64,000 nt of DNA from Gallionellaceae bacterium UBA2239 (GCA_002347615.1 DDYH01000006.1:8573-72572); one strand, 5' to 3'. Counted from the stretch's first letter, positions 3,493 through 42,553 are shown. The notes: generated from the sequence alone by a model not told the origin. Program-made: numbers and translations.

Positions 3493-3511
3493 GCCCTCGA
3501 AACCACGCGCC

Positions 3512-3709
3512 ATGATCGCAGTACAAGACGCATGGAAGGCCGGGCTGTTCCGGCGCGAACATTGGCTGCCCAACGTGGTGTCCGGCGTCATCGTCGGGGT
3601 GGTGGCCCTGCCCCTGGCCTTCGCCATCGCCCTCACCACCCTGCTGCCGCCTTTCGCCCTGAAATGGCTTTGCCGCCGCTACGGCGGAGACGGCCCTCTC
3701 CCGGACTAG
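3512..3709 (+). pseudogene. N-terminal remnant of a second SulP/DauA-like transporter
   Basis: MIAVQDAWKAGLFRREHWLPNVVSGVIVGVVALPLAFAIA resembles the first TM segment of SulP/DauA proteins. The similarity then stops and the frame ends after about 65 codons. The listed ORF start at 3470 lies inside the upstream terminator. Confidence 0.45.
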
Positions 3710-4098: not shown

Positions 4099-4155
4099 TG
4101 TTTTGGTAAGTGACGTGTGCCCGAATATTGCAGCGTGATTTCAGCTTAGCTTAAA

Positions 4156-4328
4156 CCCAGATTATCCATTAGGCGGCGCTTCGCGCCTACGCGAGCGCTG
4201 GCGGCCGGTTTGCGGCCATTTTTGCCGCTTGTTCGTCGTCCATGGAATAACCATGGACTCCTCGCAAGCAACGAAACTGTCTCGCAACCCACCTCGCCAT
4301 CATCTCGCGTCCTAATGGATAATCTGGG
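4156..4328 (+). mobile_element. MITE-like non-autonomous element, copy 1 (173 bp, 18-bp TIRs, TSD TTAAA)
   Basis: TIRs CCCAGATTATCCATTAGG (4156-4173) and CCTAATGGATAATCTGGG (4311-4328). Direct TTAAA at 4151-4155 and 4329-4333. 171/173 identical to 15177-15349. Confidence 0.9.
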
Positions 4329-4344
4329 TTAAAAATCGTTTCGG

Positions 4345-5148
4345 CTATCGTTGCTCCTTTGAGCGCGGTGTCTCCCGCCCTTCCGGGATGATGCCGAACA
4401 CGTACCACCAGCCGGTCAGGGGCGATTTGCGGAACAGGACCGTGCGCTGCTTGTCCCGGAACAGGTAGCGGGTGGACCCTTCCTCCTGGGCCTGCATGCG
4501 GCCGATGGCCCGGCTCAGGTCCGGGCTGAGCTTGGTCGGGTCGGTGAAGATCAGGTGGGGGTCCCAGTCCAGGCCGATCAGGGGGGCGGCGTCGAAGGAG
4601 TAGAAAATCATGGTCTGGTCCAGATCCATATCCTTCTCCAGGCGGGCGCTGAGCTGGTCCAGGTAGACCGAGGCGCCGAGCATCCCCGCCACGGATTTGT
4701 CCGGGCCCATCACCGGCACGGCGACGATGGCGACGCTTTTGCCGGTGGCCCTGCTCACCACCAGGTCGCCGATCACCGTCTTCCCGGCCAATAGCTTGGG
4801 GAAATAGGCGCGGCCCGACAGGTTGCCGGCGGCGCGGCCTTCCTGCACGCTCCAGTAGCTCCCGTCGGGCAGGGCGAACCAGTTGAGGGCGGGAACGTTC
4901 CGCCGCCCCACCTGGGCGAGGCCGGATTTGATCCGCTCCCAGTTTCCCGATTGGGCTTCCGGGGTGGCCGCCAATTCCCCCAGGTCGTCGGCCATCTTCT
5001 GCAGGTGGCCGTCGCTCAGGGAAACCAGGGAGGCGAGGGCTACCTTGCCGTCCACGGTGAAGGCGGGCTCCCCCCGGGCGAGCCCGGCGCCGAGGAAAAG
5101 GGTCAGTACGATAAGGAACAGGCGGGGAAGCAGCGGTGTGTTGGCCAT
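4345..5148 (-). CDS. Secreted periplasmic sensor-like protein (Cache/PDC-like fold)
   Basis: Signal peptide MANTPLLPRLFLIVLTLFLGAGLARG. Remainder resembles single Cache ligand-binding modules (..YFPKLLAGKTVIGDLVVSRATGKSVAIVAVPV..). No output domain. Confidence 0.55.
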   Translation of the reverse strand: MANTPLLPRLFLIVLTLFLGAGLARGEPAFTVDGKVALASLVSLSDGHLQKMADDLGELAATPEAQSGNWERIKSGLAQVGRRNVPALNWFALPDGSYWSVQEGRAAGNLSGRAYFPKLLAGKTVIGDLVVSRATGKSVAIVAVPVMGPDKSVAGMLGASVYLDQLSARLEKDMDLDQTMIFYSFDAAPLIGLDWDPHLIFTDPTKLSPDLSRAIGRMQAQEEGSTRYLFRDKQRTVLFRKSPLTGWWYVFGIIPEGRETPRSKEQR

Positions 5149-9962: not shown

Positions 9963-10062
9963 CAGAAAATGAAAGAGGCCGCATGTAGCGGCCTCGCATT
10001 TGGTGCATCTTTCAGCTTGTTAGCGGACAGAGCTCATATCCCGATATCGTAGTAACATCAAG
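9963..10062 (-). ncRNA. Predicted tracrRNA (anti-repeat + linker + terminator hairpin); ends approximate
   Basis: Minus strand of 10019-10056 is complementary to the crRNA-sense repeat (18-nt perfect core plus flanking matches and a 1-nt bulge). It is followed by hairpin GAGGCCGC-UACAU-GCGGCCUC (9975-9995) and UUUCAUUUUCU. Confidence 0.75.
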
Positions 10063-10104
10063 GCTACACGTATAGTCCCGTAAAATCAAACACAAGGGGG
10101 GAGT

Positions 10105-13100
10105 GTGCTCAGGAAGATGCGTTATCGCCTGGCGTTGGATGTTGGCTCGACATCCATTGGCTGGTGCCTGATTCGACTGAATGCCGACGATGAGCCGATT
10201 GCCATTATCCGAATGGGGGTGCGCATATTTTCCGATGGGCGCAATCCCAAAGATGGCTCGTCCCTTGCCGTGACCCGCCGCAACGCCCGGCAAATGCGCC
10301 GTCGGCGGGATAGGTTGCTGAAACGCAAGGAACGGATGTTGTCTGCTTTGACCCGTCTCGGCTTCTTTCCTTTGGATGAGGCCAAGCGCCGCGAATTAGT
10401 GAGTCTCGATCCCTATGCCTTGCGTAAAAAAGGTCTGTATGAAGCGTTGAGCGGCCCCGAGTTTGCGCGGGCGTTGTTTCATATCAATCAACGACGCGGA
10501 TTCCTAAGTAATCGCAAGACGGACAGGAAAGACAGCGAAAGCGGGGCGCTTAAGAAGGCAATCAAAGGGCTGCGGGGAAAGCTGGCCGAGGAGGGATGCC
10601 GAACGCTGGGGGAATGGCTGGCTCGCCGCCATGAGCAGCGCCTGAGTGTACGCGCGCGCCTGCGGGGCAAGACGCAGAAAGAAAAGGCCTACGATTTCTA
10701 TGCCGACCGGGCAATGATCGAGCATGAATTCGACGCGCTTTGGGACCGGCAGGAAGCGCTAAATCCCGTCCTTTTCAATCCCGCCGCTCGTGATGAACTC
10801 AAAGACATCCTGCTTCATCAGCGCCGTCTCAGACCGGTTCGACCCGGGCGCTGCACCCTTCTGCCGGAAGAGGAGCGCGCGCCGCTGGCATTGCCCAGCA
10901 CCCAGCGTTTCCGTATCTATCAGGAGGTCAACAATCTGAGGGTTCTTTCGCCGGCGGATATGTGCGAAAAGCCGTTGACGCTGGATCAGAGAAACCGTGT
11001 CGTCGAATTGCTTGAGCGGCAGGGCGAGGTCCGTTTTACCAGGATACTTAAAGAGTTGAACCTGTCTGGCGCCACCAAATTCAACCTGGAAGACATCAAG
11101 CGCGATCGGCTCAAAGGAAACTCCACCTCCGCTGTTCTTGCCAAGGAGAATTGCTTTGGCGAGCGGTGGTACGGTTTTGATGGGGCAGTGCAGGACGAAA
11201 TCGTGGACCGGTTGCTGAACGATGCCAGCAAGTCGGCCTTGGTGAATTGGTTGCAGGAACGGACGGGCGTAGACGAGGCGTGTGCCGAAACCATCGCCAA
11301 CGTGAGCTTGCCGGAAGGGTATGGCAACTTGAGTCGCAAGGCGCTGTCCCGGATTCTTCCCGAACTTGCCGCGGATGTGACGGTGTATTCCGATGCGGTT
11401 GTCCGAGCGGGATTTGACAGCCACAGCGCGCTGTCTTCCGCGGAGCAAACGGGCGAAATTTTGGGTGAATTGCCTTACTATGGCATTCCCCTACGCCGCC
11501 ACGTCGCCTTTGCCAAAGACCATCCGCGCAACGACGAGGAGCGTTATGGGAAAATCGCCAACCCGACGGTGCATATCGGCTTGAACGAATTGCGCAAGGT
11601 GGTAAACGCCCTCATTCGACGGTATGGCCATCCCAGCGAAGTGATTGTGGAGGTGGCGCGAGAGCTCAAACTGGGGCGTGAACGAAAGCTGGAAATCCAG
11701 CGCGAACAGAAGGAACGGCAAGACCTCAACGACAAACAGGTGGCCGAAGCCTGCGCCGTGCTCGGTTGGACCCCAGCCAACCTTGACCGCGCCAAGCGGC
11801 GCGAACTTTCGCAGAAAATGCAGTTGTGGGTGGAGCTCAACCCCAAGAACGTGGCTGACCGGCAGTGTCCCTATACCGGCGAACAAATCGGCATTGAGCG
11901 GCTTTTGTCGAGCGAGGTGGAGATTGAGCACATCCTTCCTTATTCCGCCACTCTTGACGACAGCATGAACAACAAGACGGTTTCCCTGCGCCGCGCCAAT
12001 CGCGACAAAGGAAACCGGACTCCCTATGAGGCCTTCGGCGTGCAGCCGATACCCGGCTACGACTACCAAGCCATTCTTCTGCGTGCCTCAAATATGCCCA
12101 GGGAGAAGGCCAAGCGTTTCGCACCGGATGGCTATCAGCGTTGGCTGAAGGAGGACAAGGATTTCCTCGCCCGGGCACTCAACGATACCGCCTATCTATC
12201 CCGCATTGCCAAGGAATACCTCTCCCTGATTTGCCCGCCCAATAAGGTACGTGTTATCCCGGGAAGAATGACGGCGCTGTTGCGGGGTAAGTTTGGGTTG
12301 AATCAGCTCCTGTCCGGTTCCGAGGTGAAAAACCGTGACGACCATCGTCACCACGCGCTGGATGCGGCGGTGATCGGTGTTACGGACCAAGGGCTGTTGC
12401 AGCGTTTCGCCAAAGCGAGCGCAAGCGCGCGGGAGCGGCAGCTTGATCGGCTTGTGGAGGAAATGCCTCTGCCTTGGCCTAGCTATCGGGAACACGCGGA
12501 GCGGGCATTGGGCGGCATCGTCATCAGCCACAAACCGGACCACGGGTATCAGGGTGCCATGCACGAAGAGACGGCCTGGGGCCTATGCGGCGACGGCGTG
12601 GCGAGCAGGCGCGTGCGCCTGGAGGACGGGGGTCCCCGCCAGCGCGAATTCAGGAATAAGAACCTGGTCGAGATCGACAGTACCCGTGATCCAAACCGCC
12701 ACGGCATGGACGAGCATGGCCGGCCACGGCACTACAAGGGCTATGTGGGCGGCAGCAACTATTGCATTGAAATTTGGCGGGGTGAGAAAGGAAAGTGGGA
12801 TGGGGACGTGGTATCCACATTCCAGGCTTACCAATTAATAAGACAATGGGGGGAAATCGAGGGAGCGAGACGGCTTCGCGACCTAAGCTTCAGCCAGTCC
12901 GGTAGGCCCTTGGTGATGCGGCTGATGATCGATGATTTGGTAAGACTGCAGGTGGATGGGAAAGAAAGGACGATGCGCGTGGCCGTAATAAGCGGCAATG
13001 GCCAGATTTTTATGTGCGACCATCATGAGGCGAACGTGGACGCCCGGAATCGGGATAAGCAAAATCCCTTTGCGTACATCTCTAAATTGCCGGGTTCTCT

Positions 13101-13173
13101 TCAGAAAGCAAAGGGCCGGAGGGTTACCGTGTCCGAAATTGGCGAACTGCGCGATCCGGGCTTCAAGGGATAA
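10105..13173 (+). CDS. cas9: Cas9, type II-C (1022 aa from GTG 10105; alternative ATG at 10117)
   Basis: RuvC-I YRLALDVGSTSIGW, Arg-rich bridge helix RRNARQMRRRRDRLLKRK, RuvC-II VIVEVARELK, HNH EIEHILPYS..DDSMNNKTVSLRRANRDKGNRTPYEAF, RuvC-III DDHRHHALDAAVIG. No csn2 or cas4 nearby. Confidence 0.97.
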   Translation: MLRKMRYRLALDVGSTSIGWCLIRLNADDEPIAIIRMGVRIFSDGRNPKDGSSLAVTRRNARQMRRRRDRLLKRKERMLSALTRLGFFPLDEAKRRELVSLDPYALRKKGLYEALSGPEFARALFHINQRRGFLSNRKTDRKDSESGALKKAIKGLRGKLAEEGCRTLGEWLARRHEQRLSVRARLRGKTQKEKAYDFYADRAMIEHEFDALWDRQEALNPVLFNPAARDELKDILLHQRRLRPVRPGRCTLLPEEERAPLALPSTQRFRIYQEVNNLRVLSPADMCEKPLTLDQRNRVVELLERQGEVRFTRILKELNLSGATKFNLEDIKRDRLKGNSTSAVLAKENCFGERWYGFDGAVQDEIVDRLLNDASKSALVNWLQERTGVDEACAETIANVSLPEGYGNLSRKALSRILPELAADVTVYSDAVVRAGFDSHSALSSAEQTGEILGELPYYGIPLRRHVAFAKDHPRNDEERYGKIANPTVHIGLNELRKVVNALIRRYGHPSEVIVEVARELKLGRERKLEIQREQKERQDLNDKQVAEACAVLGWTPANLDRAKRRELSQKMQLWVELNPKNVADRQCPYTGEQIGIERLLSSEVEIEHILPYSATLDDSMNNKTVSLRRANRDKGNRTPYEAFGVQPIPGYDYQAILLRASNMPREKAKRFAPDGYQRWLKEDKDFLARALNDTAYLSRIAKEYLSLICPPNKVRVIPGRMTALLRGKFGLNQLLSGSEVKNRDDHRHHALDAAVIGVTDQGLLQRFAKASASARERQLDRLVEEMPLPWPSYREHAERALGGIVISHKPDHGYQGAMHEETAWGLCGDGVASRRVRLEDGGPRQREFRNKNLVEIDSTRDPNRHGMDEHGRPRHYKGYVGGSNYCIEIWRGEKGKWDGDVVSTFQAYQLIRQWGEIEGARRLRDLSFSQSGRPLVMRLMIDDLVRLQVDGKERTMRVAVISGNGQIFMCDHHEANVDARNRDKQNPFAYISKLPGSLQKAKGRRVTVSEIGELRDPGFKG

Positions 13174-13178
13174 TTGAA

Positions 13179-14108
13179 ATGATCGGCCGCATCGTTGAAG
13201 TGGCCGATGACCGACGGCATCTCTTTGCCTCCCGCGGCTTCATGGTCGTGCAGGATACGGAAGGCGAGCGCAAGGAGTTGGGGCAGGTTCCCCTGGACGA
13301 CATCGCAGCCGTTATCGCCAATGCCCACGGCCTGAGCTACACCAACAACCTGCTGGTGGCCCTCGCGGAACGCGGCGCGCCTTTCGTTCTGTGCGCAGCC
13401 AACCACAACGCTATCGGCATGCTGTGGCCGATAGACGGGAATTACCAGCAGGCCAAACGGTTCGATGCCCAATTGGCGGCGACCCGTCCCACGCACAAAC
13501 GGCTGTGGGCTGAAGTGGTGCGGAGCAAACTGCAACAGCAGGCCGCCGCTTTGGAGGCGGCGGGCGCCAACTCCATACCTCTTTCCGCCCTGGCGGCCAA
13601 GGTTCGTTCCGGCGACTCCGGCAACCTCGAAGCCCAAGGAGCCCGGCGCTACTGGGCGTTGTTGTTCGGGGGCGACTTCAGGCGCGACCAGAATGGGGAC
13701 GGGATCAACGCCCTGCTCAATTATGGCTACACCGTGCTGCGTGCCGCCATGGCACGAGCCATCGTTGCTGCCGGGCTTCATCCCACCCTGGGCCTTCACC
13801 ATGCCAATGAAAGCAACGCCATGCGCTTGGTGGATGACCTGATGGAGCCGTTTCGCCCAGTAATCGATTTGCACGTATGGCAATTGGGCAGAACCGGGGA
13901 GGCGGCAGTTACACCCGACACCAAGCGAACCCTCGTGCGGTCACTTTATGACGACATGCAAACCACTTCCGGCGCGACTCCGGTCATGGTGTGCATGCAG
14001 CGGTTGGCGGTGTCCCTGGCTCAGGTATACATGGACCAGAGAGACAAACTGGACCTTCCCTTGCCGGGGTTGCCGTTGTCCATGGCGGCCAGCCTGGCCG
14101 ATGACTGA
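13179..14108 (+). CDS. cas1: Cas1 (type II)
   Basis: 309 aa, 5 nt after the cas9 stop. ..NALLNYGYTVLRAAMARAIVAAGLHPTLGLHHANESNAMRLVDDLMEPFRP.. is the Cas1 catalytic core. Confidence 0.95.
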   Translation: MIGRIVEVADDRRHLFASRGFMVVQDTEGERKELGQVPLDDIAAVIANAHGLSYTNNLLVALAERGAPFVLCAANHNAIGMLWPIDGNYQQAKRFDAQLAATRPTHKRLWAEVVRSKLQQQAAALEAAGANSIPLSALAAKVRSGDSGNLEAQGARRYWALLFGGDFRRDQNGDGINALLNYGYTVLRAAMARAIVAAGLHPTLGLHHANESNAMRLVDDLMEPFRPVIDLHVWQLGRTGEAAVTPDTKRTLVRSLYDDMQTTSGATPVMVCMQRLAVSLAQVYMDQRDKLDLPLPGLPLSMAASLADD

Positions 14109-14117
14109 GTTGTCGCC

Positions 14118-14444
14118 ATGCTCAGCGGATATCGTCTCATGTGGGTAGCCGTCATGTTCGATCTTCCCGTGGTGGAAAAGAAAGAGCGCAAAGCCGCAAC
14201 CGGATTCCGCAATGCGTTGCTGGACATGGGATTCGAGATGGCCCAGTTTTCGGTATACATGCGTTTCTGCACCAGCCAGGCGCAAATCGATACCTACTGT
14301 AGGCGGGTGGAGGAAACCTTGCCTGACGGCGGGAAAGTCAATATTCTGGTTTTCACCGACAAGCAATATGAGCGCATTATTTCTTTCCATGGGAAAGCCA
14401 AACAGGACCCGAAAAAATCACCGGACCAATTTGATTTGTTCTGA
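14118..14444 (+). CDS. cas2: Cas2 (type II)
   Basis: 108 aa. MWVAVMFDLPV..ERKAATGFRNALLDMGFEMAQFSVYMRF.. is the Cas2 ferredoxin-like fold pattern. Confidence 0.9.
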   Translation: MLSGYRLMWVAVMFDLPVVEKKERKAATGFRNALLDMGFEMAQFSVYMRFCTSQAQIDTYCRRVEETLPDGGKVNILVFTDKQYERIISFHGKAKQDPKKSPDQFDLF

Positions 14445-14465
14445 GTCGGTGCGCCTTTTTTCGAT

Positions 14466-14504
14466 TCGAAAAAATAAGAAACCCACTGACGAATCAGTGG
14501 GTTT
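14466..14504 (-). terminator. Minus-strand Rho-independent terminator between the array and cas2
   Basis: AAACCCACTGA (14479-14489), 4-nt loop, TCAGTGGGTTT (14494-14504). Read on the minus strand the hairpin is followed by CUUAUUUUUU. Confidence 0.8.
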
Positions 14505-15176
14505 CAGAACTGCGATTCTACTCTATCGGGATATGAGCTCTGGCCGGAACGCCTGCCGTTCGCGCTCGTTCAGGTCCTCTATTCTACTCTATCGGGATAT
14601 GAGCTCTGGCCGGAACTGCGTTGTGGTATCCGCCGCTGATCGTGATATTCTACTCTATCGGGATATGAGCTCTGGCCGGAACTTTGCTCGCAAGCTCAAC
14701 ACCACCGCCGGCATTCTACTCTATCGGGATATGAGCTCTGGCCGGAACGCGGCCGGCTCCCAGGTGAAGCCGGCTGATATTCTACTCTATCGGGATATGA
14801 GCTCTGGCCGGAACTGTATAATACACCTTACTACTTGAACGCACATTCTACTCTATCGGGATATGAGCTCTGGCCGGAACTTGGTCGCCACGGTCATTTT
14901 TGGCGTGCTTATTCTACTCTATCGGGATATGAGCTCTGGCCGGAACTCAAAGAGGATGCAATTCACCGCTACATCGATTCTACTCTATCGGGATATGAGC
15001 TCTGGCCGGAACAAGGACGGAAGCGCGCAGCAGAAGTCCAATATTCTACTCTATCGGGATATGAGCTCTGGCCGGAACCCCATGAGCTGTATCCCGCCTA
15101 TGACACTCATTCTACTCTATCGGGATATGAGCTCTGGCCGGAACGCATCACAGGTAACACGGCATTCCGCTTTTAT

Positions 15177-15349
15177 CCCAGATTATCCATTAGGCGGCGC
15201 TTCGCGCCTACGCGAGCGCTGGCGGCCGGTTTGCGGCCATTTTCGCCGCTTGTTCGTCGTCCATGGAATAACCATGAACTCCTCGCAAGCAACGAAACTG
15301 TCTCGCAACCCACCTCGCCATCATCTCGCGTCCTAATGGATAATCTGGG
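15177..15349 (+). mobile_element. MITE-like element, copy 2, inserted at the spacer 10 / repeat 11 junction (TSD TTTAT)
   Basis: Same TIRs as copy 1. TTTAT at 15172-15176 and 15350-15354. Excising the element plus one TSD restores ..CCGCTTTT|ATTCTACTC.. (30-nt spacer plus intact repeat). Confidence 0.95.
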
Positions 15350-16781
15350 TTTATTCTACTCTATCGGGATATGAGCTCTGGCCGGAACTTGCAACGTCAC
15401 CTACTGTTGCCCCCGACTATTCTACTCTATCGGGATATGAGCTCTGGCCGGAACGCGGTCACTGCGGCGGTCGCGCTTACCTTGGATTCTACTCTATCGG
15501 GATATGAGCTCTGGCCGGAACTCGCGGCGCTCCATGACGTATTCGCGGTACATTCTACTCTATCGGGATATGAGCTCTGGCCGGAACCACTTACCCAGTT
15601 GTGTAAAATATTTTTAGATTCTACTCTATCGGGATATGAGCTCTGGCCGGAACCTGGCCCGCGCGTTCAGCTTTTCGGGCAGCATTCTACTCTATCGGGA
15701 TATGAGCTCTGGCCGGAACTTGGGGGCGCATGGCTGACCAGTGGCGCAAATTCTACTCTATCGGGATATGAGCTCTGGCCGGAACCCACCAGGAGTCATT
15801 ATGCCGCCATTCTTAATTCTACTCTATCGGGATATGAGCTCTGGCCGGAACGCATCGACGAGCTGATCCGCGCCCGCGACGAATTCTACTCTATCGGGAT
15901 ATGAGCTCTGGCCGGAACGCGCCTGGCTCCCAGGTGAAGCCGGCTGATATTCTACTCTATCGGGATATGAGCTCTGGCCGGAACCCTTTGGGTTGCGTGT
16001 TGGTGCGTTCAAGTATTCTACTCTATCGGGATATGAGCTCTGGCCGGAACAGTCCGACACGCTGGCCCGCCTGATCGAATATTCTACTCTATCGGGATAT
16101 GAGCTCTGGCCGGAACGCTGTTGGAGCGTCGGCGCGACCGCCGGCCATTCTACTCTATCGGGATATGAGCTCTGGCCGGAACTTCAGTAAGTTCAATATC
16201 TCTTGGAAGCTAATTCTACTCTATCGGGATATGAGCTCTGGCCGGAACGGTGCCAAAGGACTCATGCAGGTCTTACCATTCTACTCTATCGGGATATGAG
16301 CTCTGGCCGGAACAGGACCACCCCGCCGTGGCGGAACTGCGCAATTCTACTCTATCGGGATATGAGCTCTGGCCGGAACCCGGAACCGCACTCGGTCCAC
16401 AGTGGGATCATTCTACTCTATCGGGATATGAGCTCTGGCCGGAACAGGTGTGCTTCGCTCAAGCTGACCGCTCCCATTCTACTCTATCGGGATATGAGCT
16501 CTGGCCGGAACTGACCAGGTGCGCGCCTATGTCGAAGCGCAATTCTACTCTATCGGGATATGAGCTCTGGCCGGAACCTGGCTTGGGTTTCGGGGCGGGT
16601 ACTATGGTTATTCTACTCTATCGGGATATGAGCTCTGGCCGGAACGCGGTGAGGAGGGGTGATCGTGGTGGCATGATTCTACTCTATCGGGATATGAGCT
16701 CTGGCCGGAACCGGTAACGGCGAACGGCAAACGTAGATAGCCCGCCGTCCTTGGAGTAGTACAACCCGGAAAGCGCCGGGT

Positions 16782-16985
16782 CTAGTCCCCTTGATAGCTG
16801 GCCGCTAATCGCATCCAGTATGCGAAGCCTTCCTTCTTCGCTTTTTTCGCATAGAAGGGTATTGACGAGAGCCGTTCTTTTAAGCGTTGCGCTTCCCGCT
16901 CGATAGCGGCTATCCTCTCCGGCGGCAAAGGCCTGGCTACCAATTCGGCCAAAGTCATCATCCGTAACCGTTCCGCCTTGTTCAT
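16782..16985 (-). CDS. Small hypothetical protein (67 aa) inside the 342-bp insert of the array
   Basis: MNKAERLRMMTLAELVARPLPPERIAAIEREAQRLKERLSSIPFYAKKAKKEGFAYWMRLAASYQGD. GGAGG lies 7 nt upstream of the ATG. Same orientation as the predicted crRNA transcription. Confidence 0.4.
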   Translation of the reverse strand: MNKAERLRMMTLAELVARPLPPERIAAIEREAQRLKERLSSIPFYAKKAKKEGFAYWMRLAASYQGD

Positions 16986-17102
16986 CGACAAACCTCCGTC
17001 CTTCGAAATCATACGTAATGCCCTTGATCGCGGGCACATGGTCAACGGTGTTCATTCTACTCTATCGGGATATGAGCTCTAACCGGAACCGTGAAGGCGC
17101 GA

Positions 17103-17741
17103 TCAACGCAAAAATCCCCCGTCCTTCAGCTCCTCCGCCACCTTCTTCGCCAGCTCGACCTGCCCGGCTTCATTGGGGTGGAGGGCGTCGAGCTTCAGTT
17201 CCTTGTCCGACAGCACGTCGGGGATGGCGTCCTCGATCAGGAATACTTTCCGCGCCTCGGCCAGTTCCGGGTAGACCTCCGCCGCCGACAGGCTGCCGAT
17301 GGCGGCGCCCACTACGCTTGGCCGGGGGGTGGCCAGGAGGATGGGGACGGCGCCGGCGTTGCGGGCCATGTTTATCATTTCCTCCAGGTTGGCGCGGGTT
17401 TCGGCCGGGGGCACTTTGCGCAGCATGTCGTTGCCCCCCAGTTCGATCATCACCGCCGCCGGCTTGTGCTCTTCCAATAGGCCGGGCAGGCGTTCCCGGC
17501 CGCCGGCGGTGGTGTCGCCGCTGACGCCGGCGTTGACCACGTTCCAGCCGGTGGCGGCGGCGAGCTTGGCGGGCCAGGCTTGTTCGGGGGTGAGGCCGTA
17601 GCCGGCGGAGATGCTGTCCCCCAGCACCAGGACCGTGGCGCCGGGGGGCAGGGCCTGCTGCTTGGGGGCGGAGCAGGCGGCGAGGGCGAGGAGGAGGGCG
17701 GCGAGCCAGAGGAGGTGGCGGTGGGGGGGGAGTGTTTTCAT
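17103..17741 (-). CDS. SGNH/GDSL hydrolase (TesA-like arylesterase/lysophospholipase), lipoprotein-type signal
   Basis: Start at MKTLPPHRHLLWLAALLLALAAC. Block I VLVLGDSISAGYG, block II NAGVSGDT, block III ELGGND, block V D.LHPN. Confidence 0.85.
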   Translation of the reverse strand: MKTLPPHRHLLWLAALLLALAACSAPKQQALPPGATVLVLGDSISAGYGLTPEQAWPAKLAAATGWNVVNAGVSGDTTAGGRERLPGLLEEHKPAAVMIELGGNDMLRKVPPAETRANLEEMINMARNAGAVPILLATPRPSVVGAAIGSLSAAEVYPELAEARKVFLIEDAIPDVLSDKELKLDALHPNEAGQVELAKKVAEELKDGGFLR

Positions 17742-35577: not shown

Positions 35578-36909
35578 ATGACTCAGATGACTCCGCAAGA
35601 AATCGTCCACGAGCTGGACAAGCACATCATCGGCCAGCACGCCGCCAAGAAGGCGGTGGCCGTGGCCCTGCGCAACCGCTGGCGGCGGCAGCAGGTGCCC
35701 GACCCGCTGCGCTCCGAGATCACCCCCAAGAACATCCTGATGATCGGCCCCACCGGCGTGGGCAAGACCGAGATCGCCCGCCGCCTGGCCAAGCTCGCCA
35801 ATGCGCCCTTCATCAAGGTGGAGGCCACCAAGTTCACCGAAGTGGGCTACGTGGGCCGGGACGTGGATTCCATCGTGCGGGACCTGGTGGAAATCGCCAT
35901 CAAGCAGACCCGGGAGCAGGAAATCCGCAAGGTGCGCCACCGGGCCGAGGACGGCGCCGAGGAGCACATCCTCGACGTGCTGTTGCCCCCGGCGCGGGAG
36001 GTGGGCTTCACCGCCGCGCCCAGCGAGGAGGAGAACGCCACCCGGCAGAAATTCCGCAAGATGCTGCGGGAAGGCAAGCTGGACGACAAGGAAGTGGAAA
36101 TCGACGTGGCCGCCACCCAGGCCCAGATGGAAATCCTCGCCCCGCCCGGCATGGAGGAGCTGACTTCCCAGATCCAGGGCATGTTCCAGAACATGGGCAG
36201 CGGCCGGCGCAAGACCAAGAAAATGAAGGTGGCCGAGGCGATGAAGGTGCTGGTCGAGGAAGAGGCCGCCAAGCTCATCAACGACGAGGAACTCAAGCTG
36301 CGCGCGGTGCAGAGCGTGGAGCAGAACGGCATCGTGTTCCTGGACGAGATCGACAAGATCACCAGCCGCTCCGAATCCCAGGGCGCGGACGTGTCCCGCC
36401 AGGGCGTGCAGCGGGACCTGCTGCCCCTGGTGGAGGGCACCACCGTCACCACCAAGTACGGCATGATCAAGACCGACCACGTGCTGTTCATCTGCTCCGG
36501 CGCGTTTCATTTGGCCAAGCCCTCGGACCTGATCCCCGAACTCCAGGGCCGCCTGCCCATCCGGGTGGAGCTGGACTCCCTGAGCGTGTCCGACTTCGAG
36601 CAAATCCTCACCAACACCGACGCCTGCCTCACCCGCCAGTACCAGGCCCTGCTGGAAACCGAGGAGGTGAAGCTGGACTTCGCCCCCGACGCCATCCGCC
36701 GCCTGGCCGAAATCGCCTGGGAAGTGAACGAGAAAACCGAAAACATCGGCGCCCGCCGCCTCTACACCGTGATGGAACGCCTGCTGGAGGAGGTGTCCTT
36801 CGACGCCGCCAAGCACAGCGGCCAGACCATCACCGTGGACGCCGCCTACGTGGACGGCAAGCTCAAGGAGCTGGCCAAGAGCGAGGATTTGGCAAGGTAT
36901 GTCCTATAA
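35578..36909 (+). CDS. hslU: ATP-dependent protease ATPase subunit HslU
   Basis: [37 protein letters not shown]. Walker [16 protein letters not shown]. 443 aa. Confidence 0.96.
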
Positions 36910-37002: not shown

Positions 37003-38235
37003 ATGACCCAGCTTAAGCGAACGAAGCCTGCTCGAATTGAATACCTTAAGGTAGAGAATTACCGCGCACTTAAACAAGTCGAGTTGAAAAACATAACTCC
37101 TCTGACGGTATTGCTCGGACCCAATGGTAGCGGGAAGTCCACAATATTTGATGTCTTCGCTTTTCTTTCTGAGTGCTTTGAGTCTGGCCTGCGTCGTGCC
37201 TGGGATCGACGGGGGCGAGCAAAGGAATTGAAGACACGTGGCAGTGATGGCCCAGTAGTCATTGAGATCAAATACAAAGAGCCCGAATTTCCCGTCATCA
37301 CTTACCATTTGGCGGTAGATGAGCATAGGGGCGCGCCGGTTGTGGTGGAGGAATGGCTGCAATGGCGACGGGGGAAAAATGGAAAACCGTTCCGCTTTCT
37401 CGATTATCGGGAGGGTCAGGGACGTGCCATTAGTGGCGAGTTACCGGACGAACAGGACACCCGCCTGGAAATACCTTTGAAGTCGCCGGACCTCATTGCC
37501 GCGAATGCACTTGGCCAGTTTGCGGATCATCCCAGGGTAGCTGCCCTACGGGATTTTATTACTGGGTGGTATGTTTCTTATTTTTCCGTGGATGATACTC
37601 GAGGTCAGCCGGAAGCGGGGCCACAGGAAAGGCTGTCTCGTACGGGAGACAATATTGCCAACGTTATCCAATATCTTGCCGAGCAGCATTCCGACAGGTT
37701 GGAGCATATATTCGAGGTGTTGCGGACACGGGTTCCCCGTGTGGAACGCGTGTTGGCCGAGGTGATGCCGGACAGCCGCTTGCTGTTGCAGATCAAGGAC
37801 GCTCCCTTCGAACACCCGGTGCTGGCGCGCTTCGCATCCGATGGCACGCTTAAAATGTTGGCCTATCTCGTGCTTTTGTATGACCCTGATCCTCCGTCGT
37901 TTATCGGGATCGAGGAGCCGGAAAATTTTCTACACCCCCGTCTGCTGGCCGAATTGGCGGAAGAGTGCCGTGCTGCTTCGGAGCGAGGGCAGCTGCTGGT
38001 AACCACGCATTCTCCTTTTTTCGTCAACGCGTTGCGCCCGGAAGAGGTCAGAGTGTTATACCGTGATGAAGCGGGGTATACCCAAACTGTCCGCGCAGTG
38101 GACATTCAGGGAATACCCGAATTCATGGATGCAGGAGCTTCATTGGGACATCTTTGGTTGGAGGGCCGATTTGGCATGGGAGATCCCCTCGTCAACCAAG
38201 GTGCACCCAACCCAACCAAGAGAGGCACGGCATGA
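37003..38235 (+). CDS. ABC-type (AAA_15/AAA_21, RecF/OLD-like) ATPase
   Basis: Walker [13 protein letters not shown]-loop region, signature-like [11 protein letters not shown], Walker [16 protein letters not shown]-loop VTTHSP. Visibly lower G+C than the flanks. Confidence 0.8.
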
Positions 38236-38846
38236 AAGCCAGCCATTTGGAGATATTGGTTGAAGAACCATCTATGGAAGCTTTTCTAAGGGCTATGTTG
38301 CCTAGGTTGCTTGGGGATGAGGCAAGTTTCGAGATATATCCATACCAGTGCAAGGATGATTTGCTGAGAAAGTTGCCGGACCGGTTGCGTGGTTATGCGA
38401 ATTGGTTGCCAGAAACGTGGCGCATCGTTGTTGTTGTAGATCGTGATGATGACGACTGTGCAATGTTGAAACAAAATCTGGAACAGATGGCCGCAAACGC
38501 AGGGTTGCGTACCCGTACAGCTGACAACGGTCTGGCTTGGCAGGTGGTGAACCGCATCGCTGTTGAGGAACTGGAAGCCTGGTATTTCGGTGATTGGGAG
38601 GCGGTGCGGCAGGTTTACCCTAAGGTAAGTGAAACTGTTCCTAAAAAGGAGGGTTTTCGCGATCCTGACGCAATTGGCGGCGGCACCTGGGAGGCCTTTG
38701 AAAGACTTTTGCAACGGGCAGGATATTTCGAGAATGGGTTACGCAAAACTGAGGCAGCTCGAGCTCTTGGTCAGCGCATTGATCCCGCCCGCAGTTGTTC
38801 TCGTAGCTTCCAAGTATTTCGAGATGCTCTCTTGGAAGCGGTCTGA
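38232..38846 (+). CDS. DUF4276-like protein (Toprim-like E..DxD pattern), translationally coupled to the ATPase
   Basis: ATGA overlap at 38232-38235. [54 protein letters not shown] resemble DUF4276 family members as I remember them. Confidence 0.7.
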
Positions 38847-38873
38847 TCTGCTCTCGGCCTTTATAATAGGGCT

Positions 38874-39153
38874 ATGGATTTTTCCGCAATTGCCCCCCAC
38901 TACGAACGCAACGCCACCGTGCAGAAATCCGCGGCGGAAGTGCTGATCCGGCTCGCCGCCCTGCACGGCATGGAAGGCATCCTCGACCTGGGCTGCGGCC
39001 CCGGCCACCTCACCGCCCGCCTGCGGGAGCTGACCAGCGGCCGGGTGGCCGGGCGAACCCTCGCCGGGCATGGTGGAGCAGGCCCGGCGGCAGTACGGCG
39101 AGCGGGACATCGTTTTCAGCCTCGGCACCGACCGGGACCTGAACGAGGTGTGA
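38874..39153 (+). pseudogene. Class I SAM-dependent methyltransferase, frameshifted and 3'-truncated
   Basis: MDFSAIAPHYERNATVQKSAAEVL..ILDLGCGPGHLT (motif I), then a frame change near 39050 (..EPSPGMVEQARRQYGERDIVF.. continues in another frame) and a stop at 39151-39153 after about 93 codons. Confidence 0.65.
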
Positions 39154-39248
39154 AATAAAACGGGTCAGCTCCGCTTTTGTCCGGCGGCTATCTTCTTCGC
39201 ATCTTTAGCCCCCATTTGCTATTCGCAAATAGCAAATGCATTTACCCT

Positions 39249-39652
39249 TCAGTGGGCGGGAGATAAGGCGGCGACGGCGATGTCGGTCTTGCCGAAATCG
39301 TTGCCTTTGAACAGCAGCGGTTCGTTGCGTTGGCGGGCCAGGGCGTAGGCGCAGCAGTCGCCGAAATTCAGCCCCGCCGGGTGCCGCCCCTTGCCGAAGC
39401 GGCTGTAGGCTTCCCTTGCCAGCCGGTATTGGGATTCATCCAGGGCCACAATCTCGAACTGGGCGGCGGCGAGCAGTTCGTCCAGAACCGCCACGCCTTC
39501 GGGGCCTTTGCGGGTTTCGATCACGATGGCCGCTTCCAGGGCGGAAACGGCGCTGATGTGCCGCGTGGGGGAGGCGGCGAGAGTGGCGGCGAAAACCTCG
39601 GCATCCGCCTCGTTCAACAGAATGGCGATGATGCCGAGGTGTCGATGACCAT
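39249..39652 (-). pseudogene. vapC: PIN-domain toxin VapC with a 1-nt deletion at codon 7
   Basis: ATG GTC ATC GAC ACC TCG GC|A TCA TCG.. gives MVIDTSASSPFC*. The rest of the PIN domain (IIAILLNEADAEVF..GDCCAYALA..LLFKGNDF) continues in the -1 frame. Confidence 0.75.
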
Positions 39653-39655
39653 GGG

Positions 39656-39910
39656 TTACTGGAACAGGCCGGTTTCGTCGTGGCCCAGGATTTCGTCGGC
39701 GCTGCGCCGGTCCCGGTCGGGAAGGGCCTTGCAGCGTTCGGCGATGCGCATCAGGGTGTCGGCGGTGACGGTTGCCGCTTGTTTCTCCCGCAGGTTGTCC
39801 AGGCGCGCTTCGAGGGCATGGACCACCGCCTCCGGGATGCTCTCGCCGGTTTTCCTGGCGAGTTCGTTCGCCAGCGTTTCGGCTTTGGGGTCGGTGATGT
39901 GCAATGCCAT
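39656..39910 (-). CDS. vapB: VapB/FitA-like antitoxin
   Basis: 84 aa. MALHITDPKAETLANELARKTGESIPEAVVHALEARL. Stop codon is 4 nt from the vapC ATG. Confidence 0.8.
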   Translation of the reverse strand: MALHITDPKAETLANELARKTGESIPEAVVHALEARLDNLREKQAATVTADTLMRIAERCKALPDRDRRSADEILGHDETGLFQ

Positions 39911-40001
39911 GGTGTCTTCCTGATTGCGCGGGGGATATGATGGAAAAAGTATATGCGTTAACCTTCACGGCTTCAATTCATTACCCCTTGTGCCAGCCTT
40001 A

Positions 40002-40271
40002 ATGTCCGGACTCATCCTCTACGCCACCGAAGACGGCCAAGCCAGCATCAAGCTTCGGGCGGAGGAGGGCACGGTTTGGCTGTCCCGGCAGGAAATGGCC
40101 GATCTGTTCGCCACCGGAAAGCCCAATATCAACCAGCACGTCAAGCACATCCTGGCCGAAGGCGAGCAGCCCCAGGCAACCATTGAGGAATACTTGACGG
40201 TTCAAAACGAAGGCGGGAGAACGGTATTGTTCAGGATCGGCAGCGAAAAAAATCCCGGAGTGCAGCAATGA
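40002..40271 (+). pseudogene. RhuM-family protein, N-terminal remnant only
   Basis: MSGLILYATEDGQASIKLRAEEGTVWLSRQEMADLFATGKPNINQHVKHILAEGE matches the RhuM N-terminus. Similarity ends after about 75 aa, and the stop overlaps the slyX ATG. Confidence 0.65.
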
Positions 40272-40489
40272 CGAACGAAGACCGCCTGATCGAAATCGAA
40301 ACCAAAATCGCCTTCCAGGAAGACCTGGTCCAGGAGCTCAACAAGATCGTCTACGAGCAGCAGAGGAAGATCGACCGCCTGGAAGCCCTCTGCAATTCCC
40401 TGGTTGACCACATCAAAGACCTGTCGATGGCAGTGGCCGAGGGGAACGTTGCGGGTAGTGCCGCCAGCGAGCGGCCGCCCCATTATTAA
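40268..40489 (+). CDS. slyX: SlyX-family protein
   Basis: 73 aa. RLIEIETKIAFQEDLVQELNKIVYEQQRKIDRLE coiled coil typical of SlyX. Confidence 0.85.
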   Translation: MTNEDRLIEIETKIAFQEDLVQELNKIVYEQQRKIDRLEALCNSLVDHIKDLSMAVAEGNVAGSAASERPPHY

Positions 40490-40572
40490 TTGGCAGAATG
40501 AACAGCCAGAGGTGAGCGTTGAGGTAATTATTTGTTCGTATTAATAAGCCATTACCGTGTATTGTTCATTAT

Positions 40573-40600
40573 TTGACATTGTTCACTGTGGGTGTACGAT
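40573..40600 (+). promoter_or_regulatory. Putative sigma70 promoter of the AbiEi-like operon, flanked by ATTGTTCA / TGAACAA boxes
   Basis: TTGACA (40573-40578), 16 nt, TACGAT (40595-40600). ATTGTTCA at 40561 and 40578. Inverted TGAACAA at 40610 and TGAACA at 40499. Confidence 0.5.
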
Positions 40601-40627
40601 AAACAAAAATGAACAAATGGGATTGAG

Positions 40628-41662
40628 ATGAAAACCGGGGCCAAGCTTCTTGCTGTTCGTGACGAGACGGACGTTCTTGATGCCGCGTTGACCGGGTTGC
40701 GCGCCATGGGTTTGCAGACGGACCTGCTTGCAGGGCAGGGACAAGGTCGGGTGCGCTTGCGCTACGGCAATGAAGTGATTACCCGCGTCGTCGAGGTCAG
40801 GCGCGCGGTTACGCCGGTGAACCTGGGTGTGGTTGCCCACCAGTTGGCGCAGTTGACTGAGCAGCCACTGCTAGTGACGGAATATGTGACGCCGCCCATG
40901 GCGGAGCGGCTGCGGGTGTTGGGGCTCCAGTTCGTAGACGCGGCAGGTAACGCCTATATCCAGGAACTGCCATTGCTGGTGTGGGTTGTGGGACGCAGGC
41001 CGGAGGAGAAGCTTCGTGCCGGGCGAGGAACGCGTGCTTTCCAGACGGGTGGGCTGAAAGTGGTGTTTGCCCTGCTGTGCTGGCCGGAGTTGGCCGACGC
41101 GCCTTACCGAGACATTGCCGGGGCGGCTGGAGTGGCTCTTGGGACGGTGGGGTGGGTGCTGAGGGATATCAAGGAGGCCGGGTTTCTGCTCGACATCGGC
41201 AAGCGGAGGCGGAAGCTGGTGAACCGCCGCCGGCTGTTGGACCAATGGGTGGAGGCGTATACGCGGCAGCTTCGGCCCAGGCTGCCGCTCAGGCGCTTCC
41301 GGGCGAGCGGGAATGACTGGTGGAAAGGCGCCAATGCGACACCTTTGGACGGCGTCTATTGGGGTGGAGAAACCGCAGCGGCCATGTTGACGGCCTATCT
41401 CAAGCCGGCGGTGGCGACGGTCTATTTTCGGGATGCCGAAGCTCTGACCGAATTGCTTACCAAGTTCAGACTGAAAAATGACCCCAAAGGCGACGTGGAA
41501 ATCCGGCCGGCCTTCTGGCACTTCGAGGTGACGGAGCACCCTGGCCTGGTGCCTCCCCTTCTGGTGTACGCCGATTTGCTGGCGACCGGGGACGACCGCA
41601 ATATCGATACCGCCAGGATGATCTATGACGAGCACCTCGCTCGACTTGTCGAGCCGGCCTGA
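40628..41662 (+). CDS. AbiEi-like wHTH regulator (putative type IV TA antitoxin)
   Basis: 344 aa. Central wHTH-like PYRDIAGAAGVALGTVGWVLRDIKEAGFL. Overlaps the downstream nucleotidyltransferase gene by 38 nt. The family call is by resemblance, not by a profile search. Confidence 0.55.
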   Translation: MKTGAKLLAVRDETDVLDAALTGLRAMGLQTDLLAGQGQGRVRLRYGNEVITRVVEVRRAVTPVNLGVVAHQLAQLTEQPLLVTEYVTPPMAERLRVLGLQFVDAAGNAYIQELPLLVWVVGRRPEEKLRAGRGTRAFQTGGLKVVFALLCWPELADAPYRDIAGAAGVALGTVGWVLRDIKEAGFLLDIGKRRRKLVNRRRLLDQWVEAYTRQLRPRLPLRRFRASGNDWWKGANATPLDGVYWGGETAAAMLTAYLKPAVATVYFRDAEALTELLTKFRLKNDPKGDVEIRPAFWHFEVTEHPGLVPPLLVYADLLATGDDRNIDTARMIYDEHLARLVEPA

Positions 41663-42553
41663 TCTCGTGCCAGTGGCGGAACTGGCGGGAGAGGTTACGT
41701 CCGTTGCCACGGCGTTGGACATCCCAGTTTTCATGGTTGGCGCTATGGCACGGGATTTGATCCTCGCTTACGGCTACGGTATCGATACCAGCCGCCGGAC
41801 GGAGGATATGGACTGGGCCATGGCGGTGGAAAGCTGGGAACAGTTCGAGGCGCTTAAGGACCGGTTGCTGGCATCGGGCCGCTTCGCGGCGCGAAAAGAA
41901 GCTCATCGCCTCAAATACCGGGAAATCATGATTGTGGACTTGGTTCCTTTCGGCGTCATCGAAGACCGAAACGGGGTTATCTCCTGGCCGCCGGAGCACG
42001 AAATCAACATGAGCGTTCTGGGTTTTCGCGAGGCATATCATAGGAGTGTGGTTGTGCAACTTCCTGGCGGGGTGTCGGTCCGATTGGCCTGCCTGCCTGC
42101 CTGCCTGCCTGCCTGCCGGCGTTGGCCATGCTCAAGTTGCTGGCTTGGGATGACCGGAAGCGTGAGTTCCCAAAGAAGGATGTTCAGGACTTTACGCTGA
42201 TTGTGCGTCACTACGTAGATGCCGGGAATCAGGATCGTTTGTACGGGCAATTTGTTGCGCTGCTGGAGGAAGAGGGTTTCGACTACGAACTTGTCGGGGC
42301 CTGGATGCTGGGGCGCGACATGGCAGAAATGTTCGGGGAAGCGGCACGGAAGTCCGCTTTCAAAATTCTGGAACGAGAGGCGAATGTGCGGGGTGCTTTG
42401 GCATTTGTCAGCGCCATGCCAATGGATGCGGAAAAAGGATTGGCCCTGTTGGAAAAGGTGCTGAAGGGGTTGAAGGAGGGAGCCGATCCCGAAAGCGCGG
42501 TGATGGAAGCTGCCGCGAGGACATCAAATAGAGAGTTGAGTCTAAAACCATGA
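41625..42553 (+). pseudogene. Pol-beta-fold nucleotidyltransferase (AbiEii-like putative toxin) split by a frameshift in a (GCCT)7 tract
   Basis: N-terminal ORF 41625..42200 has VGAMARD..TEDMDWAM (G-x..DxD NTase motif). The C-terminal part continues in ORF 42122..42553 (LAMLKLLAWDDRKREF..). The frames switch exactly at 42087-42114. Confidence 0.75.
42087..42114. repeat. Tetranucleotide microsatellite (GCCT)7
   Basis: Seven perfect GCCT units counted directly (42087-42114), followed by GCC. Confidence 0.98.

Follow-up and report, generated by a model that had tools for sequence, protein, structure and literature searches.

A 173-bp MITE (miniature inverted-repeat transposable element) is inserted at a spacer/repeat boundary of a CRISPR array in Gallionellaceae bacterium UBA2239 (GCA_002347615.1 DDYH01000006.1:8573-72572; this whole stretch of 64,000 nucleotides is called the window here, and positions are counted from its first letter). 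The inserted element (copy B, 15177-15349, + strand), recognised by its inverted repeats, its alignment to a second copy and its fold, lies between spacer 10 and repeat 11, counted from cas2. The second copy (copy A, 4156-4328, + strand) lies in the intergenic stretch that separates a gene with a CZB domain from a dCache-like gene. Taken as a whole, the account given below, which joins the anatomy of the insertion, the family and target rule of the element, the transcribed sense and polarity of the array and a predicted effect on CRISPR RNAs (crRNAs), is in our judgement highly probable.

The two copies align without gaps and are identical at 171 of 173 positions, and in the copy-to-copy alignment the likeness ends exactly at perfect 18-bp terminal inverted repeats. 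The termini read CCCAGATTATCC...GGATAATCTGGG, and within the window the 18-mer CCCAGATTATCCATTAGG is present at four places, as the left ends of copies A and B (4156-4173 and 15177-15194, + strand) and as their right ends (4311-4328 and 15332-15349, - strand), where 100 shuffles gave an expectation of zero. Inspection of the flanks showed that each copy has its own 5-bp direct duplication, TTAAA on both sides of copy A (4151-4155 and 4329-4333) and TTTAT on both sides of copy B (15172-15176 and 15350-15354). In the array, the TTTAT target consisted of the final 3 nt of spacer 10 (15145-15174) and the initial 2 nt of repeat 11 (15353-15388), with which the right duplication overlaps. The interval between repeat 10 (15109-15144) and repeat 11, 208 bp in length, is the sole irregular one in the array, and once 173 + 5 bp are excised, a spacer of 30 nt, the modal length, remains beside an intact repeat; the MITE-free site would read ...CCGCTTTT joined straight to ATTCTACTC.... 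An earlier note on this DNA had described the two copies with their ends and duplications, and had concluded from the restored spacer that a real transposition into a single array had taken place; all of its coordinates and sequences were correct, and the conclusion held. It had also stated that the window contains no transposase. The element itself has neither coding capacity nor a transposase gene, and no transposase was seen among the open reading frames (ORFs) examined, which make up part of those in the window, so that the statement stands for this part. The inverted repeats, the separate duplication of each copy, the restored 30-nt spacer and the dozens of relatives with the same ends and 5-bp duplications (see below) therefore support the genuine transposition of a non-autonomous MITE into one single array.

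The left array junction, ...CCGCTTTTAT followed directly by CCCAGATTATCCATTA, was also present in an independently assembled metagenome contig (L001, JGI 3300002821), which carries copy A as well and terminates inside the array copy of the element. In copy A the two assemblies disagree at a single base (window position 4260, L001 position 143), the JGI version being 172/173 identical to copy B; the difference is due to polymorphism or else to conversion between the two copies of the element.

The 18-mer CCCAGATTATCCATTAGG was found at at least 50 loci in an exact-match scan that took one genome for each species, and among the matches listed nearly all belong to Sulfuricella, Sulfurimicrobium, Sulfuricellaceae, Gallionellaceae, Methylotenera, Methylobacillus or unnamed Betaproteobacteria. 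Since by our own arithmetic about 17 chance matches of an 18-mer are expected in the 596 Gb scanned, lone matches in Paenibacillus, Melioribacter and similar taxa may be noise; viral contigs gave no match. BLAST and pattern matching recovered full 173-bp relatives with 75-96% identity, together with other size classes (67-286 bp) bounded by the same ends. A perfect 5-bp duplication flanks 32 of 47 two-ended copies, and six more agree at four of the five positions, compared with 0-1 copies in shifted registers. In all 32 perfect duplications the second position is T and the fourth is A, which gives the target WTNAW; TTTAT and TTAAA both fit. Enrichment of the array in target sites was rejected as an idea, with WTNAW at 4.5/kb in the array versus 7.4/kb elsewhere. 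One relative lies between kfrB and kfrA on the IncP conjugative plasmid pYKBU009 (LC623927; L053, 4001-4173) with the duplication TTTAA, and another is carried by the Sulfuricystis multivorans plasmid pSTJ1 (L059, ~3505-3680), and such plasmid copies are a plausible route by which the MITE has spread. Inverted repeats, copy-specific duplications, shortness without a transposase and many dispersed copies make the element a MITE. A search of the full-text literature for the inverted-repeat sequence returned chance matches only, and the family, which is widespread among Betaproteobacteria of the Nitrosomonadales type, appears, as far as we checked, to be undescribed so far. As a separate observation, MITE copies often stand beside genes for chemoreceptors or for GGDEF or Cache-domain sensors (L013, L015, L022, L026, L034, L038 and window 4345-5148), an adjacency that may only reflect how many such genes exist.

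Several points weigh against the account outlined above. The right array junction is known from the window alone; no empty site was recovered, the sole MITE-free array variant being L068, a contig described below; neither the window nor 50 loci of 8 kb nor the plasmid collection yielded an autonomous element with these ends; and the repeat ends in a -10-like TAGAAT, without a TG extension and without a -35 element, which concerns the predicted effect on the crRNAs. The first of these points would fit an assembly artefact, in which the repeated 173-bp sequence was misthreaded through a repetitive array, as would the fact that two short-read assemblies break in or near the region, L001 inside the MITE and L054 in the array. 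However, a mis-join would give neither a perfect 5-bp duplication fitting WTNAW nor an exact 30-nt spacer beside an intact repeat, and the left junction is independently reproduced; we thus regard an artefact as very improbable. The 208-bp interval could also be a spacer of excessive length or DNA that was taken in through recombination between repeats, in line with a 342-bp, apparently mobile-element-derived fragment between two repeats of the same array and with an 899-bp plasmid fragment between repeats in Sulfolobus (PMC4390879). Against capture, the interval can be broken down exactly into a normal spacer of 30 nt, a duplication of 5 bp and an element with inverted repeats at its ends, and the same element is found elsewhere in this genome and in many other genomes with duplications of its own, which leaves this explanation with an even slighter chance of being correct than the artefact.

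Transposition being the preferred reading, the question is which transposase family moved the element. The terminal 14 nt of the MITE were compared with 11 ends of seven IS1380-family elements, extracted from annotated elements (ISEcp1, IS1247, IS1678/ISSsu5, ISBdi2, ISSp1, a Nostoc member and a Roseomonas member). These ends match the MITE at 8-10 of 14 positions, the same positions recurring, and all of them start with CC, whereas nine or more matches are attained by only 0.17% of 14-mers drawn at random from the window. ISEcp1 makes AT-rich 5-bp duplications (PMC6061673). Among the other members, the Nostoc element (ends CCCGGATTTC...) is flanked by TTTAT/TTTAG, IS1678 by GATAG/GATAG and ISBdi2 by CTAG (4 bp). 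With moderate confidence, these likenesses place the MITE in the IS1380 family, an assignment that, as no autonomous element was found, relies on end likeness and duplication length only. The earlier note had proposed to look for further copies and for a full-length insertion sequence (IS) sharing the ends; the copies were plentiful, at 50 or more loci and on two plasmids, but no full-length parent turned up in the window, the 8-kb loci or the plasmids. Likewise, no matched end pairs 0.6-6 kb apart with matching flanks were found. Recurrent ORFs beside the MITEs were rejected as transposases, being chemoreceptor and GGDEF paralogues, and candidate parent ends in L005, L016 and L038 proved to be truncated or short variants. 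It is conceivable that the MITE derives from, or was moved by, a transposase of another group with duplications of about 5 bp, such as an IS701/ISAba11-like, IS1634 or unclassified one. The missing cognate transposase leaves room for such a parent, end likeness of 8-10/14 speaks to the family level only, several IS1380 members duplicate 4 bp (CTAG) rather than 5 bp, and the comparison was confined to IS1380-family ends. On the other hand, all 11 IS1380-family ends agree with the MITE in the CC start and at the conserved positions, chance agreement at nine positions is as rare as given above, and the ISEcp1 duplications and the TTTAT/TTTAG flanks of the Nostoc member resemble those of the MITE; we therefore consider a parent outside IS1380 unlikely. 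Tn3-family ends are about 38 bp long and start with GGGG, which does not fit the MITE as the offspring of a Tn3-type parent.

The array that received the element belongs to a locus in which cas9 (10105-13173; 1022 aa, with HNH, RuvC_III and Cas9_a domains), cas1 (13179-14108) and cas2 (14118-14444), all identified by domain scan, are contiguous on the + strand (10105-14444) without csn2 or cas4. The array begins 70 bp past cas2 and comprises 31 perfect 36-bp repeats and 30 spacers by repeat search (14515-16711, transcribed from the - strand); with the three genes directly upstream of it, the locus has a type II-C layout. The transcribed strand follows from two features. First, a candidate trans-activating CRISPR RNA (tracrRNA; 9965-10075, - strand, with a provisional 5' end) contains an anti-repeat just upstream of cas9 (10052-10024) that agrees with the repeat in 26 of its 29 positions, and, about 30 nt past it, a strong intrinsic terminator (9995-9975, - strand) with a T-run, from which the crRNA sense is the minus strand. 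Second, another intrinsic terminator, found by terminator scan on the minus strand directly after the cas-proximal repeat (14505-14478), marks the likely end of the precursor crRNA (pre-crRNA), so that transcription runs from the cas-distal end toward cas2. Rfam gave no family match in the window, the tracrRNA candidate included. In this sense the repeat reads GUUCCGGCC...GAGUAGAAU and array parsing gives spacer 10 as AAAAGCGGAAUGCCGUGUUACCUGUGAUGC (15174-15145, - strand); the order is repeat 11, AAA, the MITE, AU, spacer 10 and repeat 10. The MITE thus parts spacer 10 from its upstream repeat and lies upstream of the ten cas-proximal spacers. At 52-60%, the GC content of the CRISPR-Cas locus (10001-17000) is below the 65% of the window, and the GC content at third codon positions of cas9 is 0.68 compared with ~0.9 for its neighbours; these lower values suggest that the locus was horizontally acquired.

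Related arrays reveal the polarity of spacer acquisition and show that the array is polymorphic both within and between samples. L054 (11920-12040) has spacers 30-18 in common with the window and then different spacers, and L066 (3300-4299), whose flanks are 98.96% identical, has in common only spacer 30 and a sequence like spacer 28. Because strains thus share cas-distal spacers and diverge toward cas2, the cas-distal end is the oldest, the acquisition end adjoins cas2, and the newest spacers are the ten that follow downstream of the MITE. Neisseria arrays are reported to have the same polarity. Both the crRNA sense that the earlier note had assumed, now borne out by the minus-strand anti-repeat and the two terminators, and its view of the cas-proximal spacers as the newest were right. 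Its proposal to compare related strains for the empty site led to no such site. L068 (ENA ERZ27315059 k141_128201, corresponding to window 12612-17514) has flanks that are 100% identical and represents the same strain, and its array runs from spacers 30-20 directly to spacers 4-1, with spacers 19-5 and the MITE gone. Spacer 4 (14749-14778) and spacer 19 (15919-15948) differ by 2 nt; given this near-identity, L068 arose either by deletion between the units of spacers 19 and 4 or through a shortcut taken by the assembler. It was rejected as a MITE-free allele from before the insertion, spacers 19-5 being entirely gone. Spacers 4 and 19 sample either one protospacer twice or two variants of it, and no match to such a protospacer was found in viral contigs. 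An exact search of metagenome contigs for the spacer-10/repeat-11 junction gave no match, but the repeat itself was unmatched there too, which indicates that the collection does not contain this organism and deprives the negative of weight; a search for contigs via ORFs that cross the array (15371-15904 and 14863-15336) found none.

At its cas-distal end the array continues, after a non-CRISPR segment of 342 bp (16712-17053), with a degenerate terminal repeat that has two mismatches (17054-17089, - strand, by repeat search). The segment contains a 67-aa gene on the minus strand, in the crRNA direction (16782-16985), with the ribosome-binding site GGAGG. Relative to a homologue, 13 of 20 substitutions fall at codon position 3, which supports this frame. 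Its homologues sit in mobile elements with integrase, primase and helix-turn-helix genes, and the gene itself matches no Pfam or PHROG family. A match of the segment to Pfam LPD37 was discarded, as it was in the wrong frame and under the family cut-off. The segment looks like a mobile-element fragment caught between two repeats.

The MITE folds end to end on either strand, with a predicted free energy of -85.4 kcal/mol for the + strand (z = -8) and -105.3 kcal/mol for the minus strand, the crRNA sense (z = -12). When 14 copies, each from a different genome, were aligned, compensatory double changes were observed in 20 of 59 predicted pairs, compared with 6.5 ± 1.6 in shuffled controls (none of 500 reached 20) and 1-5 in slid controls. 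In addition, a side stem-loop at element positions 20-32 has one pair that is seen as U-A, G-C and C-G. Because it has no counterpart in the other arm, independent fold-back origins of sub-families cannot explain this stem. The covariation suggests that the hairpin structure is under selection, which appears to act at the level of either DNA or RNA. In the predicted transcript of repeat 11, MITE, spacer 10 and repeat 10, the hairpin folds as a separate domain, and the terminator scan called no terminator inside the MITE on the minus strand.

These features, read from sequence and folding, lead us to the following model. The 18-bp ends would be recognised by a DDE transposase acting in trans, most likely one of the IS1380 family, which would insert the element at WTNAW and duplicate 5 bp; one copy landed on the TTTAT at the spacer 10/repeat 11 boundary of an otherwise intact type II-C array. 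Any transcript across the site would then gain a 173-nt hairpin of -105 kcal/mol, a likely substrate of ribonuclease III (RNase III), the enzyme of type II crRNA maturation. RNase III would be expected to cleave at the hairpin. With no terminator called on the minus strand of the element, spacer 10 would be expected to carry a long, structured 5' extension, so that its crRNA would be reduced or abnormal. For spacers 9-1 little or no effect would be expected, and the CRISPR system as a whole probably stays functional. This effect on crRNA production is inferred, as are the altered or abolished spacer-10 crRNA and the possible change in read-through that the earlier note had foreseen. How large any polar effect would be hinges on whether transcription of crRNAs begins within each repeat. 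The earlier note had placed a putative promoter in the repeat; the -10-like TAGAAT is indeed present, but the TG extension and the -35 are missing and the promoter scan called no promoter in any repeat. The repeats of Neisseria and Campylobacter are unlike the present one with its lack of a TG extension and a -35. Repeat-internal promoters would be possible at this locus, but the scan does not support them.

The insertion may even be functionally neutral, if each repeat had its own promoter and the spacer-10 guide were still made through 5' trimming or through a start at the GATAAT of the MITE. Repeat-internal promoters are documented in type II-C Neisseria and Campylobacter (PMC5965381), and the present repeat ends in the TAGAAT. 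The MITE also has a -10-like GATAAT 5 nt from each end, facing outward, of which the + strand combination TCGCCA-18-GATAAT (15315-15344) was called promoter-like in the scan, and the absence of a minus-strand terminator is equally compatible with neutrality. Conversely, the repeat features and the scan result given above speak against promoters in the repeats, and on the crRNA-sense strand the -35 region of the MITE has 3/6 matches by eye and was not called as a promoter; all of these promoter arguments amount to consensus matching. We consider neutrality somewhat unlikely, and the reduced or abnormal spacer-10 crRNA remains our preferred expectation. A further variant, to which we assign a low probability, is that the MITE, with its conserved hairpin and outward-facing GATAAT motifs, provides the pre-crRNA with a new point of entry for RNase III or a new start point, which would uncouple the ten newest from the twenty older spacers, or silence spacer 10 only. 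If this were true, nature would have set up at this locus a test of how well a type II-C array that lacks strong promoters in its repeats copes with a structured insertion. Searches of the window, of plasmids and phages and of viral contigs gave no target for spacer 10, and thus there is no sign that the insertion was selected or provided an escape from self-targeting. None of the spacers in the array has a match in the MITE, elsewhere in the window or in the loci that were retrieved.

Among known systems, the closest counterpart is HqIRS37 of Haloquadratum walsbyi HBSQ001, likewise a MITE in a CRISPR array whose removal rebuilds the ancestral spacer (PMC3119063). That element, from an unrelated MITE family, lies inside a spacer of an archaeal remnant array that has no cas genes and was already non-functional (PMC3119063), whereas the present insertion is at a spacer/repeat junction of a bacterial locus of type II-C, in which cas9-cas1-cas2 are intact and a tracrRNA candidate and 31 perfect repeats are present. 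In Sulfolobus, ISC1359 has inserted into a spacer (PMC4390879), and IS and MITE insertions that disable CRISPR-Cas, cas genes included, have been surveyed (PMC10359306). Most of these insertions hit cas genes or a spacer on which selection against self-targeting acts, unlike the present case with its intact cas genes and no spacer-10 target found. ISEcp1 and the IS1380 family resemble the MITE in the CC start, the 8-10/14 end matches and, for ISEcp1, the 5-bp duplications; they differ in being 1.6-1.9 kb long with a transposase of 420-500 aa, while the present element is non-coding, 173 bp long and without a full-length partner found. The Correia elements (NEMIS) of Neisseria are short and abundant, with inverted-repeat ends and long transcribed hairpins that RNase III cuts at the ends (PMC10969869). 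They serve as a functional analogy for the hairpin in the pre-crRNA, where RNase III cleavage is only predicted. The present element, with its 18-bp ends and 5-bp WTNAW duplication, has no sequence similarity to them and is not a Correia element. Correia ends are 26 bp long and the duplication is TA. The Tn3-derived TIMEs are likewise non-autonomous, bacterial and associated with a 5-bp duplication, but the 18-bp ends and CCCAG start of the MITE do not agree with ends of the Tn3 type.

Elsewhere in the window, a region of lower GC content (37003-42553), downstream of an ORF that is HslU-like by eye (35578-36909), is a defence or toxin-antitoxin island with an AAA_21/AAA_15 ATPase partnered by a DUF4276 protein, a toxin with a PIN domain, and an AbiEi_2 protein, after which come two unassigned ORFs.

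Transposon insertions inside CRISPR arrays are rarely reported, and this one is a clean bacterial example in a functional-looking locus. A review of the Sulfolobales noted that arrays seem to resist, or rarely suffer, transposition (PMC4390879), and CRISPR goes unmentioned in a 2024 review on the MITEs of prokaryotes (PMC10969869). What is added here is a bacterial type II-C case in an intact locus together with an apparently undescribed MITE family. The understanding of CRISPR or of transposition is unchanged, as this is a rare case of a known kind, made less unusual by its precedents. For the organisms that harbour it, the MITE family will break short-read assemblies, as seen here. For the type II-C system, the locus offers a simple test of how crRNAs are produced when a 173-nt hairpin parts a repeat from its spacer.

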